A stretch of 56,744 nucleotides of DNA from Candidatus Omnitrophota bacterium (GTDB lineage Bacteria; Omnitrophota; Gorgyraeia; Tantalellales; Tantalellaceae), in contig JBDRKO010000009.1 in assembly GCA_043813915.1 (NCBI GenBank), positions 1-56,744 of the forward strand. Reading direction: 5' to 3'. This document shows, in pieces, positions 16,960 through 49,848 of the stretch (positions within the stretch are counted from its first letter, which is position 1; the number at the start of each line of letters is the position of its first letter). The position numbers and the translations under genes were made by a program. Below the pieces are notes generated by a model, which was not told the DNA's origin, searched no databases, and saw only the letters and a list, made by a program, of their open reading frames with translations.

Positions 16960-17165
16960 CTCAGTCCGCTTTAGCGGACTGCATGCCACAATCTTCCGAG
17001 CTCTTCCCCGCCTTCACCCGTAGATTCAGAGTTACGTAAATAACTTTGTCACCCGAAGGGGCGGGTGTTCACGGCGAGTTCCACAGTCCGAAGGACGAGG
17101 ACTGTCTGAGTCCGGAACACTTGCCCCTTCGGGTGACAGTTTAATAGATTACAAGACACTATGAC
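16960..17165 (+). repeat. Module A copy 1 (~205 bp structured repeat)
   Basis: CTCAGTCCGCTTTAGCGGACTG...GTCACCCGAAGGGGC...GCCCCTTCGGGTGAC...ACAAGACACTATGAC; five co-oriented copies in the window. Confidence 0.95.
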
Positions 17166-17183
17166 TTCTGTTTTCTCTTATCC

Positions 17184-18275
17184 CTATGCTCTATGCTCTG
17201 ATCCCCATTCACTCTCTATTATTCTCACCAACTCTTCTATAGCATGTGACGCATCAACCGTCTTTACTATCTTTCCGTCTTTAAATATAGCACCTTTATC
17301 CTTGCCGAAAGCGATACCTATATCGGCGACTTTAGCTTCTCCGGGACCGTTGACCTCGCAGCCCATTAACGCGATAAGGATCGGTTTATTACGAGTTCGG
17401 GGTTCATAGTTCGTAGTTCGTAGTTTTTCCTTGAACTCCGTTACTATAGAGACGAGATCCACCTGGCATCTGCCGCAGGTAGGGCACGCTATTATCTCCG
17501 GACCGAATTTACGCGATCCGCAAGCGCTTAATATATTTTTAGCCGCATCTATCTCTTTTGAAGGATCCCCCGTCAAGGAGACCCTGATCGTATCCCCTAT
17601 ACCGTCAAGCAAGAGAGCGCCTATTCCGATGCTCGACTTTACTATTCCTTCTTCCGGGAGCCCTGCCGCCGTTACTCCTACATGAAAAGGATGATCGCAT
17701 CTGGCAGCCATTAACCTATACGCGTCCCTGGTAAGGGCTACCCCGGATGATTTAATAGATATCACCAGGTTCTCGAACTTTTTTTTCTTAAAATATTCCA
17801 GATATCTATCGACGGAATCTACCATTACTTCGGCGGATCTTCCTGAAGAGGAATACATCTCGGTTAAAGATCCCGAATTTACCCCTATCCTGATCGGTAT
17901 CCCCTTGTCACTGGCCGAACCTATCACCGCGTCGATATCTTTTTCCTTTTTGATATTTCCCGGATTGATGCGTATTTTGTCCGCGCCGCTAGCGATAGCC
18001 GCTATAGCAAGCGTATGATCAAAATGTATATCCGCGACAAGCGGTATGTTTATGTTTTTCTTGATATCCGCTATCGCCGCGGCGTCTCTATGGTCTTTAA
18101 CGGCCACGCGGATAATTTCGCACCCTCTCTCTTTCAAAAGTGCGATCTGTTTGACCGTGCTCTCAATATCGGCTGTAGCGGTTTTGGCCATAGATTGTAT
18201 AGCAACAGGATACCCGGATCCTATCTTCACCGCGCCTATACTAACTGTCCTGGTTTTTCTGCGTACTATATCCAT
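17184..18275 (-). CDS. ispG: (E)-4-hydroxy-3-methylbut-2-enyl-diphosphate synthase
   Basis: IQSM, PLVADIHF, RINPGNI, IRIGVNSGSL, GDTIRVSLT, CPTCGR, MGCEVNGPGE. Confidence 0.97.
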   Translation of the reverse strand: MDIVRRKTRTVSIGAVKIGSGYPVAIQSMAKTATADIESTVKQIALLKERGCEIIRVAVKDHRDAAAIADIKKNINIPLVADIHFDHTLAIAAIASGADKIRINPGNIKKEKDIDAVIGSASDKGIPIRIGVNSGSLTEMYSSSGRSAEVMVDSVDRYLEYFKKKKFENLVISIKSSGVALTRDAYRLMAARCDHPFHVGVTAAGLPEEGIVKSSIGIGALLLDGIGDTIRVSLTGDPSKEIDAAKNILSACGSRKFGPEIIACPTCGRCQVDLVSIVTEFKEKLRTTNYEPRTRNKPILIALMGCEVNGPGEAKVADIGIAFGKDKGAIFKDGKIVKTVDASHAIEELVRIIESEWGSEHRA

Positions 18276-18289
18276 AGTGTTTGTTGGGG

Positions 18290-18528
18290 TTATCTACCCT
18301 GGTTAACGCTGCCAGGTAAATGATCTGGTTTTATGCTAACCTGGCAGCTTCTAACCAGGTTAGCATTTTTACTTTTATTTCTCCCATTACACATCACACA
18401 TAACACATTACACGGCGCTTCGTCCCTCGTCCTTCGTCTTTCTTCCTTCGCCCTTCGTTCATATTTGACTCTCGTACACTCTGACACTTTGACACTTTTT
18501 CTCGCTTCTGACTTCTACTCTCTACCTT
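18290..18528. repeat. Intergenic mosaic: CTAACCTGG/CCAGGTTAG hairpin pair plus heptamer tracts (CACATAA, CGTCCTT, CTGACTT types)
   Basis: Two related inverted units at 18294-18363, then CCCATTACACATCACACATAACAC...GGCGC, also seen at ~14775-14810 (inverted), ~37960 and ~39895. Confidence 0.65.
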
Positions 18529-19635
18529 CTACTTCCCCGCCTCTTCCACCTTCACTTCGCTGTTAGCTCTGTCTCCAAGCGGTGTAAATTTCACTATATC
18601 ATTCCAACTTACCATGACCGCAAAGGTTATAAGAGCGAAAACCGCTATCTGAGTTATCCATTCCTGGACTTTAACGCTCAAAGGACGGCCTTTTATTTTC
18701 TCCATAACGAGGAATATAATATGCCCTCCGTCCAGGACCGGAAAAGGTAAAAGATTGAATATGGCCAGCGCCATACTGACATGCGCCGTTATCAGAAGAA
18801 GCGGTATAATACCTAACTCGGCGGCCTGACCCATAAGATGGGCTATACCTATAGGGCCCGATACAGAGGTCTTCATGGGCATCCCGCCGGTTATAAGCAT
18901 CCATATACCCTTATATGTCATTCCGCTAAGCACCAAAAGTCTTTTTCCGCCGTGATACATAGCCTGAACGGGATTGTAAGAAACCGATATGATCTTATTC
19001 TTCGGAGCTATTCCTACCATGGGCCTGGATATTTTTTGCCCGAATATGTTGGTGATAGTAGATATATTCGGAGTTACTTTGATAGAAAGAACACGCGCTC
19101 CTCTCTCTATCTCGATGTCCAGTTTCTCCCCCGGCAAAGATCTCTTCTTTATCGCTTCGACGATATCATCCCAATATTCGGTCCCGGATCCGCTTATAGA
19201 AAGTATTTTGTCCCCGACCTTTATCCCGGAGGCTTCTCCCGGGTAGCCCTTAAGGACTTCGCCCACTTCATTGGAAAGAGTCGGTATCCCGGCCATAAAG
19301 ACCACGCTGAAAAGGATGAACGCGAAAACATAATTTGTCAGCGCTCCCGAAGCCATCACCCAGAAACGTTTACCGACCGGTTTGGATGCCAACTCATCTG
19401 TCCCGCCGGAGGCTTCCGAAGGGTCTTCTCCCGCCATTCTCAAATATCCTCCGAACGGAAGCATGGATATCCTGTAATCGGTCCCGCCGATCTCCTTGCC
19501 GCAAAGTCTTTTCCCGAAGCCTAAAGAGAACGCTTCAACTTTGACCCCCGCTCTTTTTGCGGCGACAAGATGCCCTGCCTCATGTATGAGTATCAGAACA
19601 CTGAAAACAAAAATAACTATAATAGCTGTTAACAA
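18529..19635 (-). CDS. rseP: RIP metalloprotease RseP
   Basis: HEAGH, FSLGFG, PDZ domain, NLLPFPVLDGGH. TTG start at 19635 behind GGAGG. Confidence 0.95.
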   Translation of the reverse strand: MLTAIIVIFVFSVLILIHEAGHLVAAKRAGVKVEAFSLGFGKRLCGKEIGGTDYRISMLPFGGYLRMAGEDPSEASGGTDELASKPVGKRFWVMASGALTNYVFAFILFSVVFMAGIPTLSNEVGEVLKGYPGEASGIKVGDKILSISGSGTEYWDDIVEAIKKRSLPGEKLDIEIERGARVLSIKVTPNISTITNIFGQKISRPMVGIAPKNKIISVSYNPVQAMYHGGKRLLVLSGMTYKGIWMLITGGMPMKTSVSGPIGIAHLMGQAAELGIIPLLLITAHVSMALAIFNLLPFPVLDGGHIIFLVMEKIKGRPLSVKVQEWITQIAVFALITFAVMVSWNDIVKFTPLGDRANSEVKVEEAGK

Positions 19636-20771
19636 GATCTCAACACCTCCTCTTGCGCCCATCTTTCCGCCTTGATAATATCATCAAGCGATGGATCTTC
19701 TACTTTTTTATGACATTCCAGGACCGTATCTACGAGTTCCGTTATCCTGGTAAATATAATTTCCCCGTCAAGGAACATACCTACCGCTTTTTCATTAGCC
19801 GCGTTCAGCACGGCCGGGAATGTCCCTCCTTTTTCCAAAGCCCCGCGTGCCATATCGATCGAGGGAAATCTTTCTCTGTCGGGTTCGCAAAAAGAAAGGT
19901 TCTTTATCGCTGAAAAATCCACCCTTGGCAGATCATTCTGGATAATATCCGGATAGGAAAGCGCTTTTAATATGGGGAACCGCATATCCGGGCAGAACAT
20001 GGAGGCGGTTATAGTACCGTCGTTAAATTCCAGCATAGCATGTATTATCGCTTCGGGATGTATTACGACCTGTATCTTGCCGGGGTCAACATCGAACAGC
20101 CACCTGGCCTCTATAAGCTCTAGACCCTTGTTCATAAGAGTTGCCGAATCTACCGTTATCTTTCTCCCCATATCCCATTTAGGATGCGCCAGCACGTCTT
20201 TCACGGACAAACCGTCAAATTCCCGTTTTTCTCTTTTCCACAGTGACCCGCCGCTTCCGGTTATATACAATCTCTCTATATCCTTAGAGGTCCTGCCCGT
20301 CAAACACTGCATAATTGCGCTATGCTCGCTGTCTACGGGAAGGATCAGAGAACGGTGGTCGGCGGCCAGCTTCATGATCATCTCACCGGCCGATACTATA
20401 GGTTCTTTGCTGGCCAGAGCGATCTCTTTGCCGGCTCTTATTGCCGCGACCAGCGGTTCTAAGGCCGCTGTCCCCGATATGGCCAGAAAGACCGTATCGT
20501 TCTCTCTGCTCGAGGCTATTTGGCAGATCCCGGGGGTGCCGGAAAGCACCTTCGTTCCCGCGGGAACTTTCCCCTTAAGTTCTTTATACAGCGTATCGTT
20601 GCCTACGGCAATAACGTCCGGGGAGAATTCTTCCGCTTGACGCGCCAGATCTCCCACGTTATCGTTAGCTGTTATGGCCGTTATACGGAACTTTTCGGGA
20701 TTTCTCCTGACCACGTCCAATACGTTCTGACCTACCGAGCCTGTTGAACCAAGAAGCGCTATATTTTTCAT
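19629..20771 (-). CDS. dxr: 1-deoxy-D-xylulose-5-phosphate reductoisomerase
   Basis: LGSTGSVG, LPVDSEHSAI, HPKWDMGRKITVDSATLMNKGLE. Confidence 0.97.
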   Translation of the reverse strand: MKNIALLGSTGSVGQNVLDVVRRNPEKFRITAITANDNVGDLARQAEEFSPDVIAVGNDTLYKELKGKVPAGTKVLSGTPGICQIASSRENDTVFLAISGTAALEPLVAAIRAGKEIALASKEPIVSAGEMIMKLAADHRSLILPVDSEHSAIMQCLTGRTSKDIERLYITGSGGSLWKREKREFDGLSVKDVLAHPKWDMGRKITVDSATLMNKGLELIEARWLFDVDPGKIQVVIHPEAIIHAMLEFNDGTITASMFCPDMRFPILKALSYPDIIQNDLPRVDFSAIKNLSFCEPDRERFPSIDMARGALEKGGTFPAVLNAANEKAVGMFLDGEIIFTRITELVDTVLECHKKVEDPSLDDIIKAERWAQEEVLRSC

Positions 20772-20796
20772 ATTTTTCGTGTACCGTGCCCCTATT

Positions 20797-20842
20797 CCGT
20801 GTCTCGTGTCTCGTGTCTCGTGTCCCGCGTCCCGAATCCCGT
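20797..20842 (+). repeat. Heptamer tract (CTCGTGT)n
   Basis: CGTGTCTCGTGTCTCGTGTCTCGTGTCCCGCGTCCCG between cdsA and dxr. Confidence 0.75.
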
Positions 20843-20846
20843 GCTC

Positions 20847-21659
20847 TTAAAATGTTTTAACATAGAAATAAAAGACCGGAGCGGTAAACAAAAGACTGTC
20901 TATCAGGTCCAGAACGCCGCCTATACCGGCAAGGTAAGCTCCGGAATCCTTCACCTTGCAGTCCCGCTTGATCAGGCTTTCCGCCAGATCTCCCACTTGC
21001 CCCAATGTTGACATTATCAATCCTATCATCAAAAGATGCATTGTTGAGAACTCTGTAAGCATTTTCCCGGCGAACAATGCCACAAAAAGACTGACCACTA
21101 TACCGCCCAAAGTCCCCTCTTTGGTCTTTTTTGGGCTTATCCGGGGCAAAAGTTCCGTCCTACCGAACAGGCTTCCGACAACATATGCTCCCATATCCGT
21201 GCTTTTTGTCACGATAATAAGGAACGCTACTAGGTTAGCGCCGTTCTCAAGAGCTCTCAGTTTTACAAAGAACGAAAAGAACCAGGCAATATAGAAAAGC
21301 GAAAATAAAGTTAGGGCCATGCTGACAAGATGATCCCCGGCGTTATCCTTCCTGGTGAACTGCAATGTGAACGCGAGAAGGCTTGCTACTACTATAAGTA
21401 TAGGTTCGAGATTTTTGAGTTCGGGAAACATACCTCCCATGAATATAACTATAGGGATGAGAGCTCCTACTACCGTACCGAAATATTTATATACGAAAAT
21501 ACCCCTGTTCTCGACAAGTTTAAAGAACTCGAATTGCCCGATCGCCACAAAAAGAGCGATGACCAGACAGAACATCCATCGCGGGAAGATATAAACTATC
21601 ACCCATACCGAAAAAAGCAGTACTATGCTTACCAAGGCCCTTTTTATGAATTTATTCAC
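20847..21659 (-). CDS. cdsA: Phosphatidate cytidylyltransferase
   Basis: Multi-TM, ISPKKTKEG, GDLAESLIKRDCKVKDSG...GGVLDLIDS. GTG start overlaps the uppS end. Confidence 0.95.
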   Translation of the reverse strand: MNKFIKRALVSIVLLFSVWVIVYIFPRWMFCLVIALFVAIGQFEFFKLVENRGIFVYKYFGTVVGALIPIVIFMGGMFPELKNLEPILIVVASLLAFTLQFTRKDNAGDHLVSMALTLFSLFYIAWFFSFFVKLRALENGANLVAFLIIVTKSTDMGAYVVGSLFGRTELLPRISPKKTKEGTLGGIVVSLFVALFAGKMLTEFSTMHLLMIGLIMSTLGQVGDLAESLIKRDCKVKDSGAYLAGIGGVLDLIDSLLFTAPVFYFYVKTF

Positions 21660-22347: not shown

Positions 22348-22362
22348 ACCTTTCGCCCTTAT

Positions 22363-22406
22363 AAACAGAAAGTAGAGAGTCTGTATCTGCTCTCTACTTT
22401 CTGTTT
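22363..22406. terminator. Perfect 17-bp inverted repeat, probable terminator
   Basis: AAACAGAAAGTAGAGAG-10 nt-CTCTCTACTTTCTGTTT downstream of the OmpA/MotB gene. Confidence 0.65.
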
Positions 22407-22437
22407 AAATGCCTTTATTCCTTTGTTCTCTGAGATG

Positions 22438-35067: not shown

Positions 35068-35457
35068 TTATTTACTGTATTCCGCCTCGACCGTAGTGGT
35101 AATACCGCCTCGCGTATTGAACATGCCCGTGATCTTCATTCGCTTCGGCCGGCAGCTTTTGGTCAGGTCATCAAGCATGCGGTTGACGGCATGCTCGTGG
35201 AATATGCCTATATCTCTGTAAGCTACTATGTATTCTTTGAATGATTTCAGTTCCAGACACCATTTATCCGGGGCATAGGCTATCTCAATCTCGGCAAAAT
35301 CAGGTAGTCCCGTTTTAGGACATATACAAGTGAATTCCGAGGTATCTATCCTGACAATATAATCTTTGCCCGTATATTCATTTTCCCATACCTCTATCTT
35401 GGGAAGTTTTATCTTTTTTATATCCTTTTGCAATCCATCATATCCGCTTTTTGTCAT
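35068..35457 (-). CDS. queF: NADPH-dependent preQ0 reductase (type I)
   Basis: EFTCICPKTGLPDFA, ELKSFKEY, FHEH, RGGI. Confidence 0.95.
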   Translation of the reverse strand: MTKSGYDGLQKDIKKIKLPKIEVWENEYTGKDYIVRIDTSEFTCICPKTGLPDFAEIEIAYAPDKWCLELKSFKEYIVAYRDIGIFHEHAVNRMLDDLTKSCRPKRMKITGMFNTRGGITTTVEAEYSK

Positions 35458-35493
35458 ATTCGCTCTCCGTGTATGGTAATTCTCGACCCGCAT

Positions 35494-35561
35494 GGGCACG
35501 GCATGCCGTGCCCCTACGTCTAGTTATCCACAATTGTAGCTGGGGTTTAAACCCCAGCTAC
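35494..35561. repeat. Module E REP plus a second GTAG palindrome
   Basis: GGGCACGGCATGCCGTGCCCCTAC and GTAGCTGGGGTTTAAACCCCAGCTAC. Confidence 0.85.
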
Positions 35562-35575
35562 CTCTGTCTTCTCTA

Positions 35576-35782
35576 CTCAGTCCGCTTTAGCGGACTGCAT
35601 GCCACAATCTTCCGAGCTCGTCCACGCCTTCTCCCCGTAGATGCAGAGTTACGTAAATAACTTTGTCACCCGAAGGGGCGGGTGTTCACGGCGAGTTCCG
35701 CAGTCCGAAGGACGAGGACTGTCTGAGTCCGGAACACTTGCCACTTCGGGTGATAGTTCAATAGATCACAAGACACCCTGAC
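35576..35782 (+). repeat. Module A copy 2
   Basis: Colinear with copy 1; short inner arm. Confidence 0.95.
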
Positions 35783-35807
35783 CCCTGTTTCCTGACTTCT
35801 CGCTCCT

Positions 35808-36494
35808 TCACCTAATCCCCAACTGTTTATGCATCTGCCCTATGATACCTATGTTCTTGCCTGTTCTCTTTTTAAGATACGCTTTAAAATACAAGAGCAT
35901 TTCCTCGTCCGCTTCGGCGACGGATCCCTCTATCGGCGTAACGGGCTGCAGAACTATTGTCCCGGGCGCGTTATATTCCAATATGTCCCCCATTTTTTTA
36001 ATGTCATCCATCGTAGTGGTTTCCGAGATGACCGCTTTCATCACCAGTTCTTTACCCGAAGCTATCTTGATGAAGCGCTTGTGTTTTTCCCAGAATTCAT
36101 CCTTATTCTTCCCCGATGATGGAAGTTTAAGGTCCATAGCCACTACATCTATCAGCTCTCTTATTTTCCGAAGATCATCGGGAAGGGTCCCGTTAGTCTC
36201 GAGATACACCCTGCTGCGCCTGTGCTTCCTGAACATGGTCAGAAACTCCGCCAAAAAATCCGCGTAGATAAGAGGTTCTCCGCCCGTCAGGGTAAGCTCA
36301 TTATAATCTTCATCAAAATCCAATATTTTGTTCAACAAAGCTTCCTTGGTGAAAGTCTTATAGCTTGTAATATCGGTATCACAGTAAGCGCAATCAAGAT
36401 TGCAGCCGTAAAACCTGACGAAAAGCTGACGGCTTCCCGTAAAAGGCCCTTCTCCTTGATAAGACAAAAATATTTCCGATATCTTCGCTTCCAT
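35808..36494 (-). CDS. queE: 7-carboxy-7-deazaguanine synthase (radical SAM)
   Basis: ISEIFLSYQGEG, FVRFYGCNLDCAYCD, TGGEP, LETNGT, QMHK. Confidence 0.93.
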   Translation of the reverse strand: MEAKISEIFLSYQGEGPFTGSRQLFVRFYGCNLDCAYCDTDITSYKTFTKEALLNKILDFDEDYNELTLTGGEPLIYADFLAEFLTMFRKHRRSRVYLETNGTLPDDLRKIRELIDVVAMDLKLPSSGKNKDEFWEKHKRFIKIASGKELVMKAVISETTTMDDIKKMGDILEYNAPGTIVLQPVTPIEGSVAEADEEMLLYFKAYLKKRTGKNIGIIGQMHKQLGIR

Positions 36495-36507
36495 AATAGA
36501 GTTCATC

Positions 36508-36706
36508 TCGCATAGCGCATAGAGCACAGTGTTGAACAGTAACTTCTTTAAAGTAACCAGTTGCCTGTTACCTGTAACCAGTGACTTGCGTTTTCTGGTA
36601 ACTGGTAACTGGTTTCCGGCAACTTTACTCAACGAACCTTTAAACTTTTAATCGCATAGCGCATGGCGCATAGCAGTTTTAAAAGTTAAAAAGTTCATAT
36701 AATTCG
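36508..36706 (+). repeat. Tract G, module F copy 2, then the G/TTAAAAAG/CATATAATTCG block also found at the IS110 junction
   Basis: F at 36532-36650; 36651-36706 matches 56522-56592. Confidence 0.88.
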
Positions 36707-36728
36707 TGAGTCGTAATTCGCACCGCTC

Positions 36729-36783
36729 TTGAACCGGGTTAAGCCTATGAGGACGTAGTCCGAATAGTGACAACCCGGTTCAC
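36729..36783 (+). repeat. Long hairpin with tandem GA and GTA triloop
   Basis: TGAACCGGGTT-AAGC-CTAT-GA-GGAC-GTA-GTCC-GA-ATAG-TGAC-AACCCGGTTCA. Confidence 0.65.
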
Positions 36784-36955
36784 TCTCTACCCTCTCTCCT
36801 CTCGCTTCTATCTTCCCTGTACCCTGAACCCTGTACCCCGTTGTTCCTTCGTTCCACGTCCCACGTCCTTCTTCCATCGTCTCTCTGTCCTCTGACTTCT
36901 GTCTTCTCTTATACCTATGCTCTGTGCGCTGTGCTCTATGCCATTATCACCGCAC

Positions 36956-37630
36956 TTACAACTTAATACTTAACACTTGCTCTTTGATCCCTGCTTTCTC
37001 GAACGCGTTCATCCTGAAAAGACATGATTCGCATTTACCGCAGGGCGCCGCTCCGTCACGATAGCAGGACCATGTATGCTCGAACGGAACACCAAGCTTC
37101 GACCCTATCCTTACTATCTCTTCTTTTCTTTTATCGATTATGGGGGTCACTATCTTTATCCCCTTTCCGAGAATACCTTCCCTTGTTCCCTTATCTATGG
37201 CTCCCTGTAATGCCTTAAAGAACACATCTCTGCAATCCGGATAATTCGAAAAATCCATCTGATGAGCTCCGATAAAAACAGCCTCGGCCCCTGTTGCCTC
37301 CGCAAAAGATACTCCGAAACTCAGGAATATCATATTCCTGGCCGGAACATATGTATTCGGTATATCGTCTTGACCGCCCGAAGAAGCATCCGGAACGGAT
37401 ACGGCGCTGTCCAGAAGCGAACTTCCTTTCCACGGCATGGTTATATTCGATATCTCATACGGCACACCGGCGGTCTCGGCTAGTTTTTTCGCGTATCCTA
37501 TTTCGGTCTTTGCTTTCTGCCCATAATCGAAAATAAGAGCCCGGCACATATATTCTTTTTTCGCGAGATATAATGTTACCGCTGAATCCATACCTCCGGA
37601 TAAAAGCACTATAGCGTTTTTCATGTTCAT
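36956..37630 (-). CDS. queC: 7-cyano-7-deazaguanine synthase
   Basis: LLSGGMDS, TYVPARN, YPDCR, TWSCY...CGKCESC. Confidence 0.96.
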   Translation of the reverse strand: MNMKNAIVLLSGGMDSAVTLYLAKKEYMCRALIFDYGQKAKTEIGYAKKLAETAGVPYEISNITMPWKGSSLLDSAVSVPDASSGGQDDIPNTYVPARNMIFLSFGVSFAEATGAEAVFIGAHQMDFSNYPDCRDVFFKALQGAIDKGTREGILGKGIKIVTPIIDKRKEEIVRIGSKLGVPFEHTWSCYRDGAAPCGKCESCLFRMNAFEKAGIKEQVLSIKL

Positions 37631-37692
37631 AGAGTTTGTGCTCGCATAGAGCATAGCAGTTAAGTCGTATATCGTATAGCGAATGTCGTATA

Positions 37693-37774
37693 GCGTGATC
37701 AAAAATAAAAATATATTCTGGGGACATTTTGAGGGGCAGGTTTACACTTCCCCGGGAAAAGTGTCCACAGAACT
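37693..37774 (-). repeat. Module B half copy
   Basis: GCGTGATCAAAAATAAAAATATATTCTGGGGACAT...GTGTCCACAGAACT. Confidence 0.88.
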
Positions 37775-37826
37775 AATGCATTAAACAGCCTAAACAGACC
37801 ATTGGCCATCGTCTATTGTCCTTTAT

Positions 37827-37941
37827 AAGAGTCATAGAGTCATCTTTCGCTACGCTCACTAGAGTCAGCATTATTTACACATCAGTCTAACCTGACTCTT
37901 TGACCCTAGCGAACAACGTGAGCGATGACTCTTTGACTCTT
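37827..37941. repeat. Module K: ~115-bp element with AGAGTCA-type terminal inverted repeats
   Basis: AAGAGTCATAGAGTCATC...GATGACTCTTTGACTCTT, with an inner AGAGTCAG/CTGACTCT pair. Confidence 0.7.
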
Positions 37942-38059
37942 TTTCTAGCATCTAGCTTCTCCCATCGCACATAACACTTAACACGGCGCCTCTCTCTTCT
38001 ATCTCCCCGGGGCCACCTTTAAACACAAAAATGCGCTGAGGACGAAATGTCCGAAGTGC

Positions 38060-38082
38060 GTCGAAACCTCCGTGTTTCGACG
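38060..38082. repeat. Module I palindrome
   Basis: GTCGAAACCTCCGTGTTTCGAC; inverted copy at 39924-39945. Confidence 0.75.
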
Positions 38083-38199
38083 GTAGAAATAGCTAAATTC
38101 GCGAACGGTACAAAATATACTCGTCCCACATCCCACGTCTCACGTCCTTCGTCCCTCTCTCTTCTCGCATCTCGCTTCTAGCCTCTAGCTTCTTCCCTC

Positions 38200-38423
38200 C
38201 TCAGTCCGCTTTAGCGGACTGCATGCCACAATCTTCCGAGCTCTTCCCCGCCATCCCCCATAGATTCAGCGTTACTTTGTCACCCGAAGGGGCGGGTGTT
38301 CACGGCGAGTTCCGCACAACCGCCTCTTTGCTTCGCAAAGCGAAGCAGCGGGGGGAGGACTGTCTGAGTCCGGAACACTTGCCCCTTCGGGTGATAGTTC
38401 AATAGGTCACAAGACGCTATGAC
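38200..38423 (+). repeat. Module A copy 3 (long inner arm, AGTTA hairpin deleted)
   Basis: Inner arm is CAACCGCCTCTTTGCTTCGCAAAGCGAAGCAGCGGGGG. Confidence 0.95.
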
Positions 38424-38463
38424 CTCTGTCTTCTCTTGTGCCCTATGCCCTTATTATTCTTCT

Positions 38464-38826
38464 CTATAAACTGTACGTAGCTGAAGCTTTTTCCGTTTCC
38501 CATACCGTCACATATCTTACTTCCGCTCCGGAACAGGCGGATCGTAAACGTCCATGTATATATTTTGCTATATTCTCCGAAGTGGGGTTCAGTTCCTTGA
38601 ACGGTTCAAGAACGTTAAGGTGTTTATGATCGAGCTCTGAAAGTATACCCGAAAGTATCCCTTTAAGGTCCTTGAAGTCCATCACCATGCCCGTTCGGTC
38701 AAGCTCTTCCGATGATACCGCGGCTTCAACTTCCCAATTGTGCCCGTGCAGCTCTTCGCATTTCCCCTTATATCCTCTGAGATTATGGGCGCTGCTGAAA
38801 TGTTCTCTTATTTTTATCGTATACAT
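38464..38826 (-). CDS. queD: 6-carboxytetrahydropterin synthase
   Basis: FSSAHNL..YKGKCEELHGHNW, LDHKHLN, NPTSENIA, VWET. Confidence 0.96.
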   Translation of the reverse strand: MYTIKIREHFSSAHNLRGYKGKCEELHGHNWEVEAAVSSEELDRTGMVMDFKDLKGILSGILSELDHKHLNVLEPFKELNPTSENIAKYIHGRLRSACSGAEVRYVTVWETEKASATYSL

Positions 38827-39430: not shown

Positions 39431-39662
39431 TTTTCATGGAATGAAAATTAACCCTGAAGACGCAACGAATAGGCGCGTCTGAAGGGTCTTTTCGTGGAAT
39501 GAAAATTAACCCTGAAGACGCAACGAATAGGCGCGTCTGAAGGGTCTTTTCGTGAAATGAAAATTAACCCTGAAGACGCAACGAATAGGCGCGTCTGAAG
39601 GGTCTTTTCGTGAAACGAAAATTAACCCTGAAGGCGCAACGAATAGGCGCGTCTGAAGGGTC
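39431..39662 (+). repeat. Module C tandem array, 4 x 58 bp
   Basis: Units start at 39431, 39489, 39547 and 39605; near-identical; no spacers. Confidence 0.95.
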
Positions 39663-39665
39663 TTT

Positions 39666-39875
39666 TCGTATATCGTATAGAGTATAGCGCTTCTAATAGC
39701 ACAGCGCATAGAGCACAGCATTGAACAGTACTTCTTTAAAGTAACCAGTTGCCTGTTACCTGTAACCAGCGACTTGCGTTTTCTGGTAACTGGTGACCGG
39801 TTTCTGGTAACTTTCATATTCAGACGACCGCAAGGGCTTATACCCCCGCGGGAAGAGTGTCCTCAGAACTTCCAC
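39666..39875 (+). repeat. Tract G, module F copy 3, and a module B fragment
   Basis: F at 39721-39815; AGGGCTTATACCCCCGCGGGAAGAGTGTCCTCAGAACTTCCAC at ~39833-39875. Confidence 0.85.
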
Positions 39876-40000
39876 ATTCGTCTTCCTTCCCTTCACACCT
39901 CACACATAACACTGATCTCGTCGGTCGAAACACGGAGGTTTCGACACACCTCGAACATTACGTTCTCGGCGCCTCTGTCTTCTGACTTCTGTCTTCTCTC

Positions 40001-40206
40001 CTCAGTCCGCTTTAGCGGACTGCATGCCACAATCTTCCGAGCTCTTCCCCGCCTTCACCCGTAGGTGCAGAGTTACGTAAATAACTTTGTCACCCGAAGA
40101 GGCGGGTGTTCACGGCGAGTTCCGCAGTCCGAAGGACGAGGACTGTCTGAGTCCGGAACACTTGCCGCTTCGGGTGACAGTTCAATAGATTACAAGACAC
40201 TATGAC
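40001..40206 (+). repeat. Module A copy 4
   Basis: Colinear with copy 1; flanked on both sides by CTGTCTT/CTGACTT heptamers. Confidence 0.95.
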
Positions 40207-40236
40207 TTCTGCCTTCTGACCTCTGTCTTCTGTCTC

Positions 40237-41196
40237 TCAGACCAACCCTGCTTTAAGAATATCCTGCACATCAAGCACCCCTACGGGCCTGCCTTCGTCG
40301 TCCACTACCGGGATCTCATCAATATGCCTGGTCGATAATACCTTGAAGGCTTCGGCCGCAAGCCTCTCCCCTTTTATAGTAACAGGTGACTTTGTCATAA
40401 CATCCCCTACTTTGCGATGCAGAAGGTCTTTACCCTCCTCAAAGTGACGCCTTAGGTCCCCGTCCGTAAAAATACCTACGAGTTTGCCGTCAGCCCCTAT
40501 AACACTTGCCGATCCCGTACGCAGCCGCGTGATCTCCAGCAGAACATCTTTGACCGATGTTTCCTGATCTACTATGGCCGTCCCTGCTTTGGGGCGCATT
40601 ATATCCTCCACCCTCAGCAATAATCTTTTACCGAGAGACCCTCCGGGATGATATAAAGCAAAATCTTTTGGTTTTATGTTCTTTCTTTCCAAGAGACAAA
40701 CGGCAATAGCGTCCCCGATGGCAAGCATTGCCGTGGTAGATGTCGTCGGCGCGAGCCCCATCGGACAGGCTTCTTTTTCGACGGAACTGTCTATAGAAAA
40801 ATCGCTGTTAACGGCCAGGGTCGATTTGAGATTACCTGTGACCGATATAAGTTTTGCCCCGATCTTCTTTATGATCGGGAGAAGCCGTATCACCTCTTCC
40901 GTCTCTCCGCTGTTAGAGAACGCTATTATGATGTCCTCATTGGTCACTCTGCCGAGATCTCCATGAAGAGCTTCGGCGGGATGCAGATACAAGGACGGGG
41001 TCCCCGTTGACGACATGGTTGCGGAAACTTTCTGGGCGATAAACCCGGGTTTTCCCATCCCGGTCACGATAACCCTTCCTTTGTTCTCCGCCAAAGCTTC
41101 TATTATCAGAACGAACTTGTCGTCTATTCTGCCTACAAGCTCGGCTATAGCCTTACTTTCATTCTCCAGAACTTTTTTAGCTAAGGATATGCTCAT
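40237..41196 (-). CDS. kdsD: Arabinose 5-phosphate isomerase (SIS plus CBS)
   Basis: GMGKPGFIA, HPAEALHGDLG, SNSGET, EACPMGLAPTTS, HPGGSLG. Confidence 0.95.
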   Translation of the reverse strand: MSISLAKKVLENESKAIAELVGRIDDKFVLIIEALAENKGRVIVTGMGKPGFIAQKVSATMSSTGTPSLYLHPAEALHGDLGRVTNEDIIIAFSNSGETEEVIRLLPIIKKIGAKLISVTGNLKSTLAVNSDFSIDSSVEKEACPMGLAPTTSTTAMLAIGDAIAVCLLERKNIKPKDFALYHPGGSLGKRLLLRVEDIMRPKAGTAIVDQETSVKDVLLEITRLRTGSASVIGADGKLVGIFTDGDLRRHFEEGKDLLHRKVGDVMTKSPVTIKGERLAAEAFKVLSTRHIDEIPVVDDEGRPVGVLDVQDILKAGLV

Positions 41197-44151: not shown

Positions 44152-44201
44152 GATAGGCTCCTTGTTTAGTGACAGATATTATAAGAGTAATACAGGAGTG
44201 T

Positions 44202-44230: not shown

Positions 44231-44269
44231 GCATCATTGTTCTAAAGGCATTTATTAGGAGATAAAAAA

Positions 44270-45310
44270 CTAAGCATTACCTAGTATGCGGCGGGCTTCT
44301 TTAATAACATCTTGCGGGGTAATAGCTTTAAGACATTCGAACGCTTTTGCGCAATTGTGAGCCATACAAACATCACATTGCGGGGGTTTATGCAAAATAC
44401 CGTCCTTATCGCCTATTGGTCCCCATCTTTTTGGAGAAAGTCCGGGATCATTGCGCCCGAAGATCGAGATGACCGGTGTCCCGACCGCTACCGCGATATG
44501 GACCGGCCCCGAATCGTTAGAGACGAATAGCCGGCATCTTGATAACATTTCGACAAGCTCTCCGAGGAGAAGCACTCCCGTCAGATCGGTGATCCGGTTC
44601 TTCATCCTGGACGCGATCTGTGAACTGTATTCGGAAGTCTCATCCGATCCCACCAGAATAATATCATATCCGTAAAGGTCCCCGAGGGCATCCGCGGTTT
44701 CCGCGAATCTTTCAGGGGCCCATCTTTTCGACGCGCAGCTGGCCCCGGCATGAAAAGCTATTTTTTCTTTTCCCAGACCGGAACTTTTTTCCACGGAATC
44801 TACCAGCTTTCTCTCTTCCTCTGACGTAAATATGTACGGTTTGGGATCATACCCGGAAACATCGAATCCCGCGGCTATGAGCATATCCCGGTTATATTCC
44901 GTTTCGTGACGTTCCCCTTTTTGTTTTTCATGTGGTATCCGCTTTGTAAGAAGGGATCCCATATTTTTATCATACCCTATCCTGACGGGGATACCCGCCA
45001 GGAACATGATCATATGCGCCCTGTTAGTAGGATGCAATGCGATAGCCGTATCGAAACGTTCCCTCCTTATCCGCCAAGCGAATTTGACGGTCTCAATAAA
45101 ACTTTTATGCGATCCGTATTTATCGTATACGATAACCTTGTCCAGATCAGGATTATTCTTTACTATATCCTTATTCTCGGGACGCACCATAAAAACTATA
45201 TACGCTTCGGGGAAACGTTTCCGCATGAAACGTATTACAGGAGTGGACAATATCACGTCCCCCATCCTGTCCGTCCGTGTTATAAGTATGCGTTTAGGTA
45301 TATTCTTCAT
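44270..45310 (-). CDS. GT9 heptosyltransferase (WaaF-like)
   Basis: RMGDVILSTP, SKRW, SNDSGPVHIA, IFG. Confidence 0.9.
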   Translation of the reverse strand: MKNIPKRILITRTDRMGDVILSTPVIRFMRKRFPEAYIVFMVRPENKDIVKNNPDLDKVIVYDKYGSHKSFIETVKFAWRIRRERFDTAIALHPTNRAHMIMFLAGIPVRIGYDKNMGSLLTKRIPHEKQKGERHETEYNRDMLIAAGFDVSGYDPKPYIFTSEEERKLVDSVEKSSGLGKEKIAFHAGASCASKRWAPERFAETADALGDLYGYDIILVGSDETSEYSSQIASRMKNRITDLTGVLLLGELVEMLSRCRLFVSNDSGPVHIAVAVGTPVISIFGRNDPGLSPKRWGPIGDKDGILHKPPQCDVCMAHNCAKAFECLKAITPQDVIKEARRILGNA

Positions 45311-45316
45311 GGTTTA

Positions 45317-45695
45317 GTATAGCGTTTCTAATAGCATAGCGCATGGAGCATAGAGTTTGTGGAGTTTGTTGGGTTGTATTGACTGAACCTCTATTTGTAA
45401 CCCGACTGTAGTAACCAGTTGCCTGTTACCCGTAACCAGTGATTTGCTTTTTCTGGTAACTGGTCCCCACTTTACTCAACGAATCGCATAGCGCTTGCCT
45501 GCCGGCAGGCAAGCATAGAGCATGGCGCATGGCTTTATATTCGTATATCGTATAGAGTATAGCGAATGTCGTATAGCGTGAACAGAAATAAAAATATATT
45601 CTGGGGACATCTTGAGGGGCAGGTTTACACTCCTCCGAGAAAGGTGTCCACAGAACTTCTGACTTCTCGCTTCTCTCATCCCTATGCTCTATGCC
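45317..45695. repeat. Intergenic mosaic: tract G, partial F (45411-45483), GCTTGCCTGCCGGCAGGCAAGC palindrome, half B (45576-45659), inverted tract G
   Basis: Direct matches to the other module copies. Confidence 0.88.
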
Positions 45696-45698
45696 ATT

Positions 45699-46205
45699 TT
45701 AACCATTCATTCTCTTATATACCTCTTCATATACATTATAATCGTACTCGGAGAAACATACGAACACTATCTCGTCAAAATTATCTTTATTCTTAAGGCC
45801 CTCGCTTATGGCTATTTCTGCCGCCTCTTTTACCGGGTATCCGTACATGCCTGTACTTATGGCCGGAAAAGCTATTGTCGCCGCGCCGCTTTCTTCGGCT
45901 AAACGTAAACTATTCCTATAACAGTTCCGGAGCGCCTCGGCCTCCCCGCGCCTTCCGCCATGCCATACTGGACCGGGAGTATGTATGATCTTTCGTGCTT
46001 TAAGAGAGCCCGCTCCCGTGATCATGGCTTCTCCTGTAGGACACCCGCCTATCTTTCTGCATTCCTCCATAACGGAAACTCCGGCAGCCCTATGTATCGC
46101 ACCGTCAACTCCTCCGCCCCCGGCCAGACGCGTATTCGCCGCGTTGACTACAACATCAACATTTTCCTGCGTAATATCCCCGAGTTTTATAATTATCTTT
46201 CCCAT
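45699..46205 (-). CDS. Macro-domain O-acetyl-ADP-ribose deacetylase (YmdB-like)
   Basis: GDIT, VNAAN, GGGGVDGAIHRAAG, IHTPGP, FPAISTGMYGYP. Confidence 0.93.
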   Translation of the reverse strand: MGKIIIKLGDITQENVDVVVNAANTRLAGGGGVDGAIHRAAGVSVMEECRKIGGCPTGEAMITGAGSLKARKIIHTPGPVWHGGRRGEAEALRNCYRNSLRLAEESGAATIAFPAISTGMYGYPVKEAAEIAISEGLKNKDNFDEIVFVCFSEYDYNVYEEVYKRMNG

Positions 46206-46210
46206 AAGCA

Positions 46211-46280
46211 GGGGCACGGCATGCCGTGCCCGATATTCCAAAACATCACATTTCATGGGCACGGCATGCCGTGCCCCTAC
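46211..46280. repeat. Module E REP doublet
   Basis: Two GGGCACGGCATGCCGTGCCC palindromes separated by the ATTCCAAAACATCACATT linker. Confidence 0.88.
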
Positions 46281-47254
46281 CCCACCAGATCCTCCACCGC
46301 CGCTAAGACCTCTTCTAACCCTATTTCAGAGATGCAGCCTTCATCCGGACCGCGGGAACATAGAGCTTTTGAACAAGGCCGGCAATCGGCGGGTGAAGTG
46401 AGCACACGGCTTTTCTCGGCCAAAGGACCGTATTTCTTTTCGTCCGACGGCCCGAAAATGGCTATGGTCTTGGCGTTCACCGCGCTTGCTATGTGGAGAG
46501 GGGCGCTGTCATTAGTAATTATCATTTCGCCGCGTTTTATGAGTTCGGCAAGGGCGCCAAGCGATGTTTTTCCGCACATATTGACAGCTTTATTCTTCAT
46601 GTGCGCGATAAGCGCACCTACCGTCTGTCTGTCGTCTTCGCTGCCTATGATAAATACCGCGCGTCCCAGTTTTTCTATTATGATGTCCGATAACGCCGCG
46701 AACTTTTTCGCGTCCCATCTTTTTAAATGGCTTTTAGCTCCCGGTGAGATCACTATTATTTTCTTACCCTCCGGGCCTATAGCATTGTCTATGTAAGCTT
46801 TATCCTCATCTCTTATCGGCATAAAGAACCCGGGTTTATCGGAGCGATCAAGACCCAAAAACGATAATTTGTCCAGATGTTCGTTCTTTTTATGACCACA
46901 TGCCCGTCGGATAAAGCGGGGTCCTGAACGGTTCTTCGCTCCCGAGAACATCGGAATAAGCGAATTTTTCATATCTACGACCAGATCATACCTTTCTTTC
47001 CGGAACTTGATAAGATCGTTCATCCTGGCTTTGAAACTTTTGCCCGAGCTATGCAGTATTACTTTTCCTACGGATGGATGCCGCCTAAAAAGCTCCAGTC
47101 CCGGTTTTCCCGTGACAACATCGATACGCACTCCCGGAAAGGACCTGCATAGTTCCGTAAGAACGGGTGTTGTAAGTATTATGTCACCCAGATTGTTCAA
47201 AGTTATGAACAATATTTTTTGGACCGCGCGCCGCCGTGTGTTCATAAATTTCAA
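46277..47254 (-). CDS. GT9 glycosyltransferase (start may be a few codons downstream)
   Basis: NLGDIILTTP, LKRW, TNDSAPLHIA, IFGP. Confidence 0.9.
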   Translation of the reverse strand: MKFMNTRRRAVQKILFITLNNLGDIILTTPVLTELCRSFPGVRIDVVTGKPGLELFRRHPSVGKVILHSSGKSFKARMNDLIKFRKERYDLVVDMKNSLIPMFSGAKNRSGPRFIRRACGHKKNEHLDKLSFLGLDRSDKPGFFMPIRDEDKAYIDNAIGPEGKKIIVISPGAKSHLKRWDAKKFAALSDIIIEKLGRAVFIIGSEDDRQTVGALIAHMKNKAVNMCGKTSLGALAELIKRGEMIITNDSAPLHIASAVNAKTIAIFGPSDEKKYGPLAEKSRVLTSPADCRPCSKALCSRGPDEGCISEIGLEEVLAAVEDLVG

Positions 47255-48276
47255 CCCAAAGCCTTTACGGCTATTTCAAACACTTCATCCACACTTATAA
47301 CATCCATGCATTTTTTGTTCAAAAGACAATCCTCGGCATAACACGGGAGGCCGCAATCTATTCTACCTTCGGACGATATAACAATATGCTCCCCTTCCCC
47401 TATTTGCCCGGTAATACGGGGCGATGTGGGGCCGAAAAGCCCTATTGTTCTGCCCCCAGCGGCCGCGGCCAGATGAAGCGGCCCGGAATCGGAACTGATG
47501 ACTAGACCGCTTTTTTTGAAGACCGCCGCCAGTTCTCCCAGCTTAGTATCACCCGCCAAACTGAAACACCTCCGGTCGTTAACTTTTTCCGTTATATACC
47601 GCGCCAGTTCTTTGTCTCCCTCTGCCCCTGTTATGACGACCTTGATAGCGGCATTATGAGCAAGGAGACGCGCGATAAGCTCCGCGAAACTGTCTCTATC
47701 CCACCTTTTCTGGGGCCAATTTCCCGCGGGATGCACAGCGATAAACTTACAAGCGCCGCCGAGCCTGTTTCTCAGTACGTCTTCGGCTTTCTTCATATCT
47801 TTTTCAGAGACCGAATATCTGTATTTTTTATCTGAAATTTTTCCGCTTTTAGCTCCGGTCAAAAGCAAAAGAGTATCTGCTCTATGCATAGGCACATTCG
47901 GGATCTTTATCTCGGATGTAATAGCCGATCTTTTTCCCGAAAAGCCTATCCGTTCGGGGATCCCGGCGGCACAGGCCATCATCGTTTTGCTCTTTGACGG
48001 TTTAAGAAGATAACACACGTCATATTTTTTCTTTCTTGTTTTCAGGATAAAAACTATTTTTTCAAAAAAAGATAAGATCCCTCTTCTATCCGAAAGTAAT
48101 ACAATGTCATCAACATCGGGTGAACCGTGAAGCAGTTCAGCGTATCTGGGGACTACCGCGCAGGTTATCCTGGCGCTTTTATGCTCTTTCTTTAAAGCTC
48201 TCAACAAAGGAAAAGAGAAGAGTATATCCCCCAGCCAGTTGAGTTCGAATATGAGTATGTTTTTGGGATTATTCAT
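47251..48276 (-). CDS. GT9 heptosyltransferase (WaaF-like)
   Basis: NWLGDILFSFP, QKRW, SSDSGPLHLA, LFGPT. Start at MNNPKN. Confidence 0.9.
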   Translation of the reverse strand: MNNPKNILIFELNWLGDILFSFPLLRALKKEHKSARITCAVVPRYAELLHGSPDVDDIVLLSDRRGILSFFEKIVFILKTRKKKYDVCYLLKPSKSKTMMACAAGIPERIGFSGKRSAITSEIKIPNVPMHRADTLLLLTGAKSGKISDKKYRYSVSEKDMKKAEDVLRNRLGGACKFIAVHPAGNWPQKRWDRDSFAELIARLLAHNAAIKVVITGAEGDKELARYITEKVNDRRCFSLAGDTKLGELAAVFKKSGLVISSDSGPLHLAAAAGGRTIGLFGPTSPRITGQIGEGEHIVISSEGRIDCGLPCYAEDCLLNKKCMDVISVDEVFEIAVKALG

Positions 48277-48376
48277 AATGATTTGTGAACAGTGTTCTGC
48301 TCCGCCCTTAAACAACAGGGCTCGCTGGTAGGGCTTCGCAGGAACAAGCATAGAGCACAGCGTTTTATTCGTATAT

Positions 48377-48466
48377 CGTGATCAGAAATAAAAATATATT
48401 CTGGGGACATTCTTCGACCAGGGTTTATACTCCCACGGGAAGAGTGTCCTCAGAACTTTCGCCTTC
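48377..48466 (-). repeat. Module B half copy overlapping the 3' end of the GT4 gene
   Basis: Near-identical to the reverse complement of 14932-15023. Confidence 0.9.
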
Positions 48467-49561
48467 TACCACTTCTCTGTACACTTTAATAGTCTTGTCT
48501 ACACTCTTGTCAAGAGAAAATCCGGCTATGGCCTTTTCTCTCGCCTTTCGTCCCATACTCTCCCTCATCCCCGGGTCTTCTATGAACCTCATTATCCCGG
48601 AAGCCAGCCGAACGGCGTCTACGGGAGGGACCAGAAAACCGTCTTTGCCGTCGATAATGAGTTCCGAAAGTCCGGGAACATCACTGGCTATACAGGCTTT
48701 TCCGCCGGCCATAGCTTCCATCAGGGACAGGCCGAGTCCTTCCGATATCGAAGGCAGACAGAATATGTCCATTAAAGACAGATACCCGGTCAAGGTCAAT
48801 TCTCCGACGCCCATTATCACTTTACCGGAAAGTCCGCTTTCCGAGATCTGCCGCCGGAGCGTCTTCTCTTCTTTTCCTTCCCCGACCAAGAGAAGACAGC
48901 TTTGCGGATATTTTTCTATAACGCGCGCGAACGCGTCTATTAGATACTTGTATCCTTTTACGGAAGAAAGTCTTCCGACGGAACCTATTATGACCGCGTT
49001 CTCATCTATTCCCATCTTCCTCATAAAATCGAGGTCCTTATCGTTTCTCCGGGACAGATATTTTTCGACTTCTATGCCGTTATATATCATTTCCACACGG
49101 CTTTCTTCTATACCGAAATCGTCCATAAGGTGTTCTTTCACACCGTTGCTTATCGCTATTATTTTAGCTCCCCAGCAAGGGAATAAACGTCTGAAAACCT
49201 TTTTATACCGGAAAAAACCGTGACAGGTCGACACGAAAGGTGTTTTTGTAAGCCATGACGCGGCGCAGGCTATGATCTGAGCGACCCTAGTCTGAGCATG
49301 GACAAGCTGAAAACCGTTCTTTTTTATTTCCCGGATAAGAACGGGTATGGCCAAAGCCGCTTTCGGACCGAATTCCGATTTGGTCCTTATATCTATTTTT
49401 ATATGACGGATGCCGTTTGCAGCCAGGTCTTTTTCCATCTGACCGCCGGATGAGGCTACGCTGACATCTACACCTTTTCTTTTTAAATATCCGGCAAGAT
49501 TCACCGTATAGACCGCTACTCCGCCGATATCCAAATGTGTGGTCAATAAGAGTATTTTCAT
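48425..49561 (-). CDS. GT4 glycosyltransferase
   Basis: VGRLSSVKG, EGLGLSLMEAMA. Confidence 0.92.
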   Translation of the reverse strand: MKILLLTTHLDIGGVAVYTVNLAGYLKRKGVDVSVASSGGQMEKDLAANGIRHIKIDIRTKSEFGPKAALAIPVLIREIKKNGFQLVHAQTRVAQIIACAASWLTKTPFVSTCHGFFRYKKVFRRLFPCWGAKIIAISNGVKEHLMDDFGIEESRVEMIYNGIEVEKYLSRRNDKDLDFMRKMGIDENAVIIGSVGRLSSVKGYKYLIDAFARVIEKYPQSCLLLVGEGKEEKTLRRQISESGLSGKVIMGVGELTLTGYLSLMDIFCLPSISEGLGLSLMEAMAGGKACIASDVPGLSELIIDGKDGFLVPPVDAVRLASGIMRFIEDPGMRESMGRKAREKAIAGFSLDKSVDKTIKVYREVVEGESSEDTLPVGV

Positions 49562-49635
49562 AATGATCCGTGAACGGTTTAAAGAAGTCAGACGCCAGAT
49601 ATTAGTGAGAGCTCCTCTGTCCTCTGTCTTCCCTA

Positions 49636-49848
49636 CTCAGCCCGCTTTAGCGGACTGCGTGCCACAATCTTCCGAGCTCTTCCCCGCCATCCCCCGTAGA
49701 TGCAGAGTTACGTAAATAATTTTGTTACCCGAAGGGGCGGGTGTTCACGGCGAGTTCCGCACAACCGCCTCTTTGCTTCGCAAAGCGAAGCAGCGGGGGG
49801 AGGACTGTCTGAGTCCGGAACACTTGCCACTTCGGGTGACAGTTTAAT
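49636..49848 (+). repeat. Module A copy 5 (long inner arm, 3' end truncated)
   Basis: Colinear with copy 3; followed directly by module E (49860-49910). Confidence 0.93.

Follow-up and report, generated by a model that had tools for sequence, protein, structure and literature searches.

What is a short hairpin doing five times on the same strand of one bacterial contig, and why does its inner loop stay fixed while the arm beyond it is exchanged? The stretch of DNA in question, hereafter the window, comprises the 56,744 nucleotides (nt) of contig JBDRKO010000009.1 from a Candidatus Omnitrophota bacterium (assembly GCA_043813915.1). A first-pass annotation, made from the letters of the window, described five structured elements in it, here called Module A, and suggested that an invariant internal loop with an interchangeable distal arm points to a functional RNA or single-stranded DNA motif rather than to a simple repetitive extragenic palindrome (REP). 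In this study, we find that Module A is a lineage-specific composite repeat, the 3' half of which belongs to a widespread family of hairpin elements that are rod-shaped and uncatalogued. Four parts define this family: a long stem of any sequence (P1), an asymmetric loop GAGU(U)/CUGUYUGA-3' closed by a fixed G-C/C-G step, a stem of 3 base pairs (bp; P2) and a variable terminal hairpin (P3). The five elements are real copies of a small and probably mobile hairpin repeat. The account that we favour, to which we give roughly an even chance, is that Module A is a non-autonomous selfish element, copied via a single-stranded + intermediate, with a loop that is read by a trans-acting protein.

A constant loop within freely varying stems

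An exact search of the window with the 18-mer GAGGACTGTCTGAGTCCG gave five matches, all on the + strand (17097, 35714, 38355, 40138 and 49800), with 0 expected from 100 shuffled sequences. The five co-oriented elements are thus borne out at the positions first given for them. A second string, ACGGCGAGTTCC, is exact at the same five + sites, and a sixth match with one mismatch (7634, - strand) is at chance level. This string had been called invariant as a whole; however, its CGG belongs to the stem, where it pairs with CCG and leaves an A bulged. Each copy is a composite intergenic repeat that consists of a 5' hairpin module, a linker and a rod of 90-117 nt. In the rod, P1 closes the asymmetric internal loop, written 5'-GAGU / CUGUYUGA-3', which is followed by P2 and the distal hairpin P3. 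The size is not the uniform ~205 bp first reported, as copies measure ~215 nt with a short arm and 231-232 nt with a long arm. The remaining anatomy was confirmed by alignment and coordinates. The 5' hairpin CAGTCCGC-TTTA-GCGGACTG is found in all five copies aligned with their flanks (as CAGCCCGC in copy 5), and a small AGTTA/TAACT hairpin is absent from copy 3 only. The stem of 23 bp contains two G.T pairs on the + strand, and the arm is either the short GTCC-GAA-GGAC (copies 1, 2 and 4) or the long type (copies 3 and 5).

We used 34 sequences to build a covariance model for the core (R1), which matches 20 copies in the source genome of 1.6 Mb. Thus, the count of five holds for the window, but not for the family in the genome as a whole; BLAST retrieved about ten full-length copies and fragments from the same genome. 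In an alignment of 17 copies, the diverged ones retain GCGAGTTCC and GAGGACTGTCTGAG unaltered, while the long stem shifts by paired substitutions. Over 154 distinct instances, which are not independent because many derive from related Adlercreutzia genomes, P1 on the motif strand (+) comprises 3729 Watson-Crick pairs and 296 G.U pairs, and its single mismatches are A.C in 31 cases and of other types in 125; stability is higher for the motif strand in 121 of these instances and for the reverse strand in 33. In 114 distinct rows aligned to the model, a fit that by itself favours structure, 96.0% of cells pair compared to 82.6% after shuffling, and the covariation score of 0.266 (0.071 for shuffled rows) was reached by none of 500 shuffles. 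In the same rows P3 shows double-sided changes at all four pairs, and its first closing pair is GC in 95, AU in 7, GU in 5, CG in 2 and another combination in 5 cases. P2 covaries in weak-scoring diverged relatives (C-G to G-C or U-A), in which a continuous helix can take the place of the small inner loop RCAG/CGA. For the window itself, the rod of copy 1 folds with -61.7 kcal/mol on the + strand versus -56.4 on the - strand (z -8.0 on +), and that of copy 3 with -76.7 versus -65.1 (z -8.6 on +). The fold is real and under selection, and foldability is maintained on the + strand.

While the stems covary, the loop is constant and P3 is a freely variable helix, so the proposal of a fixed internal loop with a swappable distal arm is upheld. 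One strand keeps the letters G C G A G U U and its partner keeps (A) C U G U Y U G A G C. Judged from relatives, the truly conserved core is GCGAGUU ... (A)CUGUYUGAGC, and not the block first claimed to be invariant. Two neighbouring loop positions contain C or U only (59 C versus 54 U, and 102 U versus 11 C), which is the pattern expected of G partners in RNA. Tandem G.A pairs can be drawn by eye, with GA on both strands beside the G-C/C-G step; a kink-turn-like bulge would then be over-long, at 4-5 nt instead of 3 nt. Judged from the sequences, the one-strand asymmetry together with the C/U-only positions marks a single-stranded form, most likely RNA, as the one under selection.

The same core is found in relatives of the window's family within stems of unrelated sequence, and R1 is positive in 24 of 54 genomes of this family, in which the copy number lies between 1 and 21. 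Diverged copies, too, keep the rod linked to the 5' module, which consists of a hairpin and then a box with UUCCG. Another genus of the family (genome G029) has a counterpart, again a hairpin and then a UUCCG-containing box, and a comparable hairpin-plus-linker unit lies upstream of the rods of genome G003. In G003, three tandem motif units (L029, 1085-1605) are located downstream of a convergent gene with a C-terminus that is GroEL-like by eye. These units precede a bidirectional-looking terminator of the GroEL-like gene, and one of them deviates in having GCGCAGUU and a P2 rich in U/A. When one genome per species was scanned for the exact pattern, at least 124 loci were obtained. Among the matches listed (80 rows) are the phylum titles Actinomycetota (Coriobacteriia and others), Bacillota (Lachnospiraceae), Bdellovibrionota, Planctomycetota and Omnitrophota, as well as Latescibacteria, Dormiibacterota, Eisenbacteria and one 'Proteobacteria' bin, nine labelled phyla in total. 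R1 detected 49, 33, 7, 5 and 3 copies in five genomes reached via these loci, with 49 in G078 and 33 in G080. The exact pattern has 0 loci in 2.9 million viral contigs and the motif has no match in a phage collection; in a plasmid collection the sole match, of 28 nt, falls in a hydrolase gene of Agrobacterium (19 records) and is at chance level. Loss of core conservation in a wider alignment had been named beforehand as one outcome that would speak against the idea; this did not occur, as the core is maintained in genomes that carry the labels of nine phyla.

Gain, loss and orientation of the copies

The sister species G001 is syntenic at this locus. Its proS-gcpE spacer is ~37 bp compared to 390 bp in the source genome, its queF-queE spacer ~0 bp compared to 308 bp and its queE-queC spacer ~13 bp compared to 324 bp, and its syntenic contig has no R1 match. 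Therefore, the window copies are gains here (or losses there) within what is a tight operon in the relative. The genes queF-queE-queC-queD are near-contiguous in G001 (C43; L218, L219), whereas in the window (35068-38826) they are split by repeat-filled spacers of 308, 324 and 762 bp. Six copies of the source genome are 92-100% identical to copy 1. Two copies contain other inserted repeats, and in a third a REP hairpin substitutes for the 5' hairpin (17-copy alignment). The neighbouring genes have unrelated housekeeping functions. Likewise, a Pfam scan of 64 neighbouring open reading frames (ORFs) in other phyla matched mostly housekeeping genes (ffh, ftsY, thrS, priA, uvrC, dnaE, nrdD, metH, recG, cmk, glyA and others) and no transposase. 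Gain or loss, patchy distribution, near-identical copies, nesting and the absence of a gene association describe a non-autonomous mobile repeat. In its genomic behaviour Module A resembles REPs and MITEs, the miniature transposable elements with inverted repeats, as it is multi-copy, intergenic, located behind stop codons, absent at syntenic sites of the sister species and nested with other repeats. Of the earlier phrase 'rather than a simple REP', the part that stands is that Module A is not a REP of the type moved by a REP-associated tyrosine transposase (RAYT).

How such a repeat might spread can be outlined under the selfish account. Copying would pass through a single-stranded + strand intermediate, with RNA being somewhat likelier than single-stranded DNA. 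The invariant loop would serve as a handle for a trans-acting protein that is not encoded by the element; a loop that is invariant across phyla calls for a conserved partner. Insertions would settle in the short spacers just behind the stop codons of a small, tightly packed genome, and would survive almost only antisense to messenger RNA (mRNA). Such near-exclusive antisense survival suggests that the folded sense RNA harms a transcript. A correctly folded sense RNA might do so by processing, termination or strong binding, and sense copies would then be purged from operons. That there is a dedicated mechanism of movement at all, the type of intermediate, the partner protein and the cause of the orientation bias are what we infer; what we observe are the covarying fold, the strand asymmetry, the copy number, the core common to several labelled phyla, the empty syntenic sites, the nesting and the bias in orientation itself.

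In the source genome, 18 of the 20 copies run antisense to every gene that flanks them; of the other two, one has flanking genes of mixed direction and one is in sense orientation. The corresponding numbers are 13 antisense, 1 mixed and 6 sense for the 20 copies of G001, and 16 antisense, 5 mixed or unflanked and 0 sense for the 21 copies of G029. The 3' base of the stem is separated from the adjacent stop codon by a median of 66, 31 and 16 nt (source genome, G001 and G029, respectively), sometimes with overlap. In the window, all long ORFs are on the - strand and the GC skew is negative throughout, therefore the five + elements are intergenic and antisense to every neighbouring gene. The GC skew of the motif strand is negative (C-rich, lagging) in 18 of 20 copies in the source genome, 16 of 20 in G001 and 21 of 21 in G029. 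As gene direction and GC skew coincide in these three family genomes, transcription and replication are inseparable there.

This coincidence bears on a reading at the level of DNA, in which Module A acts as single-stranded or cruciform DNA, either as a replication-strand hairpin or as the site of a DNA-binding protein, and its orientation follows the fork. G.T pairs are tolerated in DNA hairpins, and with the motif strand lagging in nearly all copies of the three genomes, the weaker, A.C-containing hairpin is then on the lagging-strand template. However, the 49 copies of G078 are arranged without a replichore-like strand pattern along its 2.9-Mb scaffold (by eye). Moreover, head-to-head (-,+) pairs with their 3' ends outward recur, five in G078, two in G001 and one in L123. 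The pair in L123 is located between the convergent genes ffh and ykuD, which argues for a tie to transcription units and not to one replication direction. The C/U-only variation at two loop positions is a classic signature of G pairing in RNA and also speaks against a DNA form. We therefore regard the DNA-level reading as improbable.

The recurring head-to-head pairs are compatible with a cellular functional RNA module, which might for instance stop, process or mark antisense or convergent read-through at gene 3' ends and thereby insulate the genes, or titrate a conserved protein. In favour of such a module, the core is invariant across phyla, and the motif strand is the one transcribed by an incoming antisense polymerase just before the gene. 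In addition, a tRNA gene lies ~40-300 nt from the motif at three of 20 Rfam-scanned loci (L048, L071 and L075), and at two of these three the 3' end of the motif faces the 3' end of the tRNA. A cellular module is more difficult to reconcile with the patchy presence in the family, where copy number ranges from 1 to 21, and with the empty syntenic sites in G001. Furthermore, copies 1 and 3 have no U-tract or terminator-like site, there is no promoter common to the copies, and between co-directional Coriobacteriia genes 15 sense copies are found versus 21 antisense ones. On balance a cellular role appears unlikely, although it keeps an appreciable share of the probability.

Several observations weigh against the selfish account that we favour. 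Firstly, the orientation bias in the source genome is inseparable from the replication strand. Secondly, the bias is weak in the cross-phylum set, which consists mostly of Coriobacteriia (n=82): the 3'-side gene converges on the motif in 48 cases, is co-directional in 29 and was not called in 5, and the split of 21 antisense to 15 sense copies between co-directional genes comes from this set. Thirdly, two Adlercreutzia genomes have copies downstream of recG, and the differences between these copies are compensatory (by eye), which could reflect selection at individual loci. No target-site duplication or exact junction was definable against the diverged empty sites; contigs from four DNA runs were fragmentary unitigs broken at repeats, and a clean empty-site joint was not seen in them. 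Likewise, no transposase, reverse transcriptase or other enzyme tied to the element was found. Finally, the loop is identical in nine labelled phyla, a trait more typical of functional RNAs or ribozymes than of known selfish repeats.

The five window copies and their surroundings

All five copies are on the + strand. Copy 1, a whole composite with a short arm (16952..17165, delimited by alignment), is located between the stop codon of gcpE (17184, - strand) and proS. Its 5' module hairpin occupies 16962..16981 and is followed by the conserved CATGCCACAATCTTCCGAGCTC. The rod of copy 1 (17048..17137) is an R1 covariance-model match of 62.4 bits. It consists of the P1 arms (17048-17070 and 17115-17137, extended by CGG/CCG), the 5' strand of the core with GCGAGTTCC (17074-17082), the short-arm P3 (17083-17096) and the 3' strand of the core with GAGGACTGTCTGAG (17097-17110). 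Copy 2 (35568..35782; rod 35665-35754; R1 64.7 bits) has a short arm and lies in the queF/queE spacer. Copy 3 (38192..38423; rod 38279-38395; P3 region 38314-38354; R1 40.8 bits) has a long arm, lacks the AGTTA hairpin and lies in the queC/queD spacer. Copy 4 (39993..40206; rod 40089-40178; R1 64.7 bits), again with a short arm, is found downstream of a gene with SIS/CBS domains that stops at 40237. Copy 5 (49628..49858; rod 49724-49840; R1 40.8 bits) is located between two glycosyltransferase genes and has a long arm, one mismatch in the 5' hairpin and a diverging 3' tail.

The copies are flanked directly by short period-7 tandem arrays (e.g. CTTCTGT, CGTCCCA and CTATGCT), which fill the intergenic spacers at 39974-39997, 40206-40235, 38122-38199, 49613-49628, 17184-17199 and many more positions. 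There are 39 tandem-repeat rows in 16800-50000, most of them with period 7. A 58-nt unit is repeated 4.1 times with 97% identity at 39431-39669, where it overlaps an ORF of 103 amino acids without Pfam match, and a unit resembling it is present at ~16830-16900, directly upstream of the proS start on the - strand. A separate repeat module around the hairpin TCGAAACACGGAGGTTTCGA adjoins copies 3 and 4 (38061-38080 on the - strand and 39925-39944 on the + strand), and a similar module is inserted in a Module A copy on contig C3 (G000:C3:18300-18572). The gene strand between copy 1 and proS (16908-16950, - strand) contains a G+C-rich hairpin with a T-rich run behind it. By eye it is terminator-like, but it was not picked up by a simple terminator scan, and Rfam returned only a noise match at this site (ClpQY promoter, E 0.68). 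The reverse complement of the 5' module, TGGCATGCAGTCCGC (16982-17003 and equivalents, - strand), shows by eye the GG/GC spacing of sigma-54 -24/-12 promoters. This GC dinucleotide is lost in one diverged copy, and no promoter is claimed.

Relation to known families

A scan of the window with Rfam 15 at gathering thresholds gave 0 matches, in line with the initial statement that Module A could not be assigned to a known family. At E up to 10, the rods of copies 1 and 3 gave noise only, namely the Deinococcus Y RNA model with 13.6 bits (gathering threshold 80) and the DUF1874 RNA with 21.4 bits (42). Over 20 loci of other phyla, Rfam gave only tRNAs and one noise match, none of them at the motif. 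A literature search by core strings and keywords, which did not cover supplementary lists of unnamed candidate RNAs, gave no description of the motif. Other candidate classes were examined against the source genome, which is 94.9% complete. A bacterial Y RNA was rejected, as the Ro/TROVE domain (PF05731) has 0 matches in this genome and the score of the Y RNA model is far from its threshold. A retron, group II intron or other retroelement RNA was rejected as well, as reverse transcriptase (PF00078) has 0 matches there. An intrinsic terminator does not fit, since copies 1 and 3 contain 0 terminator-like sites on either strand and no T-run follows P1; a promoter scan of the same two copies found no site within the elements. 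With regard to a classical MITE that depends on a DDE transposase, the P1 arms differ between copies and covary instead of being conserved, and the junctions are blurred by the diverged empty sites.

Mobilisation of a REP or REPIN by a RAYT would be a conceivable source of movement, as would an origin as an IS200/IS605-type derivative with end hairpins or as an orphan TnpB guide-RNA scaffold. The source genome encodes three RAYT-like Y1 transposases (C38, C49 and C6) and is rich in palindromic repeats, and Module A has a hairpin near each end. However, the RAYT-like genes on C38 and C49 are flanked by other hairpin families and not by the Module A motif, and the flanks of the gene on C6 are unique. 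The gene on C38 (G000:C38:6959-8315, L173) is flanked on both sides by ATCCATCCGGGATAA...TTATCCCGGATGGAT hairpins that recur on more than 15 contigs; from its sequence, it resembles a REP-RAYT system of the classical type that is distinct from Module A. Moreover, Y1_Tnp does not track the motif: 48 of 54 family genomes contain it irrespective of the motif, it was not detected in G029 (76% complete), which has 21 motif copies, or in G065, which has 5, and it is absent from G078 and G080. GTAG or CGTC have been described as tags at REP hairpins (PMC3733652), and neither tag was seen by eye at the base of P1. The RAYT/REPIN candidate was rejected on the flanks of the RAYT genes and the distribution of Y1_Tnp. 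The IS200/IS605 and TnpB candidates were dropped as well, as the TnpB zinc ribbon (PF07282) has 0 matches in the source genome and the 64 neighbouring ORFs include no transposase. This group of explanations is largely refuted and retains very little probability.

Two further readings place the function in the loop itself. It is decidedly improbable, but conceivable, that the asymmetric loop acts as the catalytic site of a self-cleaving ribozyme of a new kind, or as an aptamer for a ligand, and is located on a dispersed repeat. Hammerhead and twister ribozymes are often carried on dispersed repeats, and a conserved loop of ~20 nt between helices of free sequence and length, in many copies and with no gene association, has this appearance. 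The rarity of sense copies in operons of compact genomes would also be expected if folding cuts the mRNA. On the other hand, no Rfam 15 ribozyme or riboswitch matched even at E up to 10, and the loop could equally be a protein-binding site. In a broader version, with a small chance of being correct, the GAGU / CUGUYUGA loop would be the active centre of a catalytic or processing-signal RNA that is widespread, belongs to an undescribed class and is carried by a mobile hairpin. If the loop were such a centre, for example a self-cleaving ribozyme or a universal handle for an RNase or another protein, this would explain the near-absence of sense copies in compact-genome operons.

The usual view of small palindromic repeats is that they are junk specific to a lineage, or the cargo of RAYTs. 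In the present case, a loop of ~20 nt is constant to the letter within freely changing stems, under labels from Actinomycetota to Omnitrophota and with up to 49 copies per genome, and it is uncatalogued. The constant loop points to a conserved partner, which might be a protein or the chemistry of the RNA itself. Because Adlercreutzia isolates are culturable and have dozens of copies, with A. equolifaciens and A. caecimuris as examples (33 and 49 R1 matches in G080 and G078), they provide a cheap experimental handle, and the antisense placement behind stop codons in compact genomes offers a direct test of the interplay between repeats and transcription. In summary, Module A represents an unusually widespread form of structured intergenic repeat, and it may conceivably turn out to be a functional RNA class not described before.

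Among known systems, the TwoAYGGAY RNA (RF01731; PMC2864571) is, like Module A, a multi-copy hairpin motif of unknown role, and was judged there not to be cis-regulatory. TwoAYGGAY was not listed for copies 1 and 3 at E up to 10, and its AYGGAY loop motif is absent from Module A. Hammerhead, twister and twister-sister ribozymes share with Module A a compact core, free helices, many copies, no fixed neighbour and a cross-phylum distribution, whereas Module A has no match to their covariance models. Repeats of the ERIC/IRU, Correia/NEMIS, RUP and bcr1 types are 100-200 nt long, form imperfect palindromes and lie in intergenic DNA that is transcribed; their copy number varies, and relatives are polymorphic for their insertions. 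The imperfect-palindrome build, the intergenic site and the variation in copy number are shared with Module A. Each of these families is restricted to a single genus or family and has conserved arms, whereas in Module A the arms are free and the loop alone is fixed, and a terminal inverted repeat with target duplication was not found. REP, BIME and REPIN sequences with their RAYTs (Escherichia coli and Pseudomonas; PMC3116915, PMC3337134) are closest in habit, since they are short, multi-copy, extragenic, hairpin-forming and non-autonomous, and are located at gene 3' ends and between operon genes in mosaics with other repeats. Unlike REP/RAYT systems, Module A has no RAYT association, and its conserved part is the internal loop on top of the rod instead of the stem or a 5' tag. 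REPs are lineage-specific, whereas the core of Module A is common to several labelled phyla.

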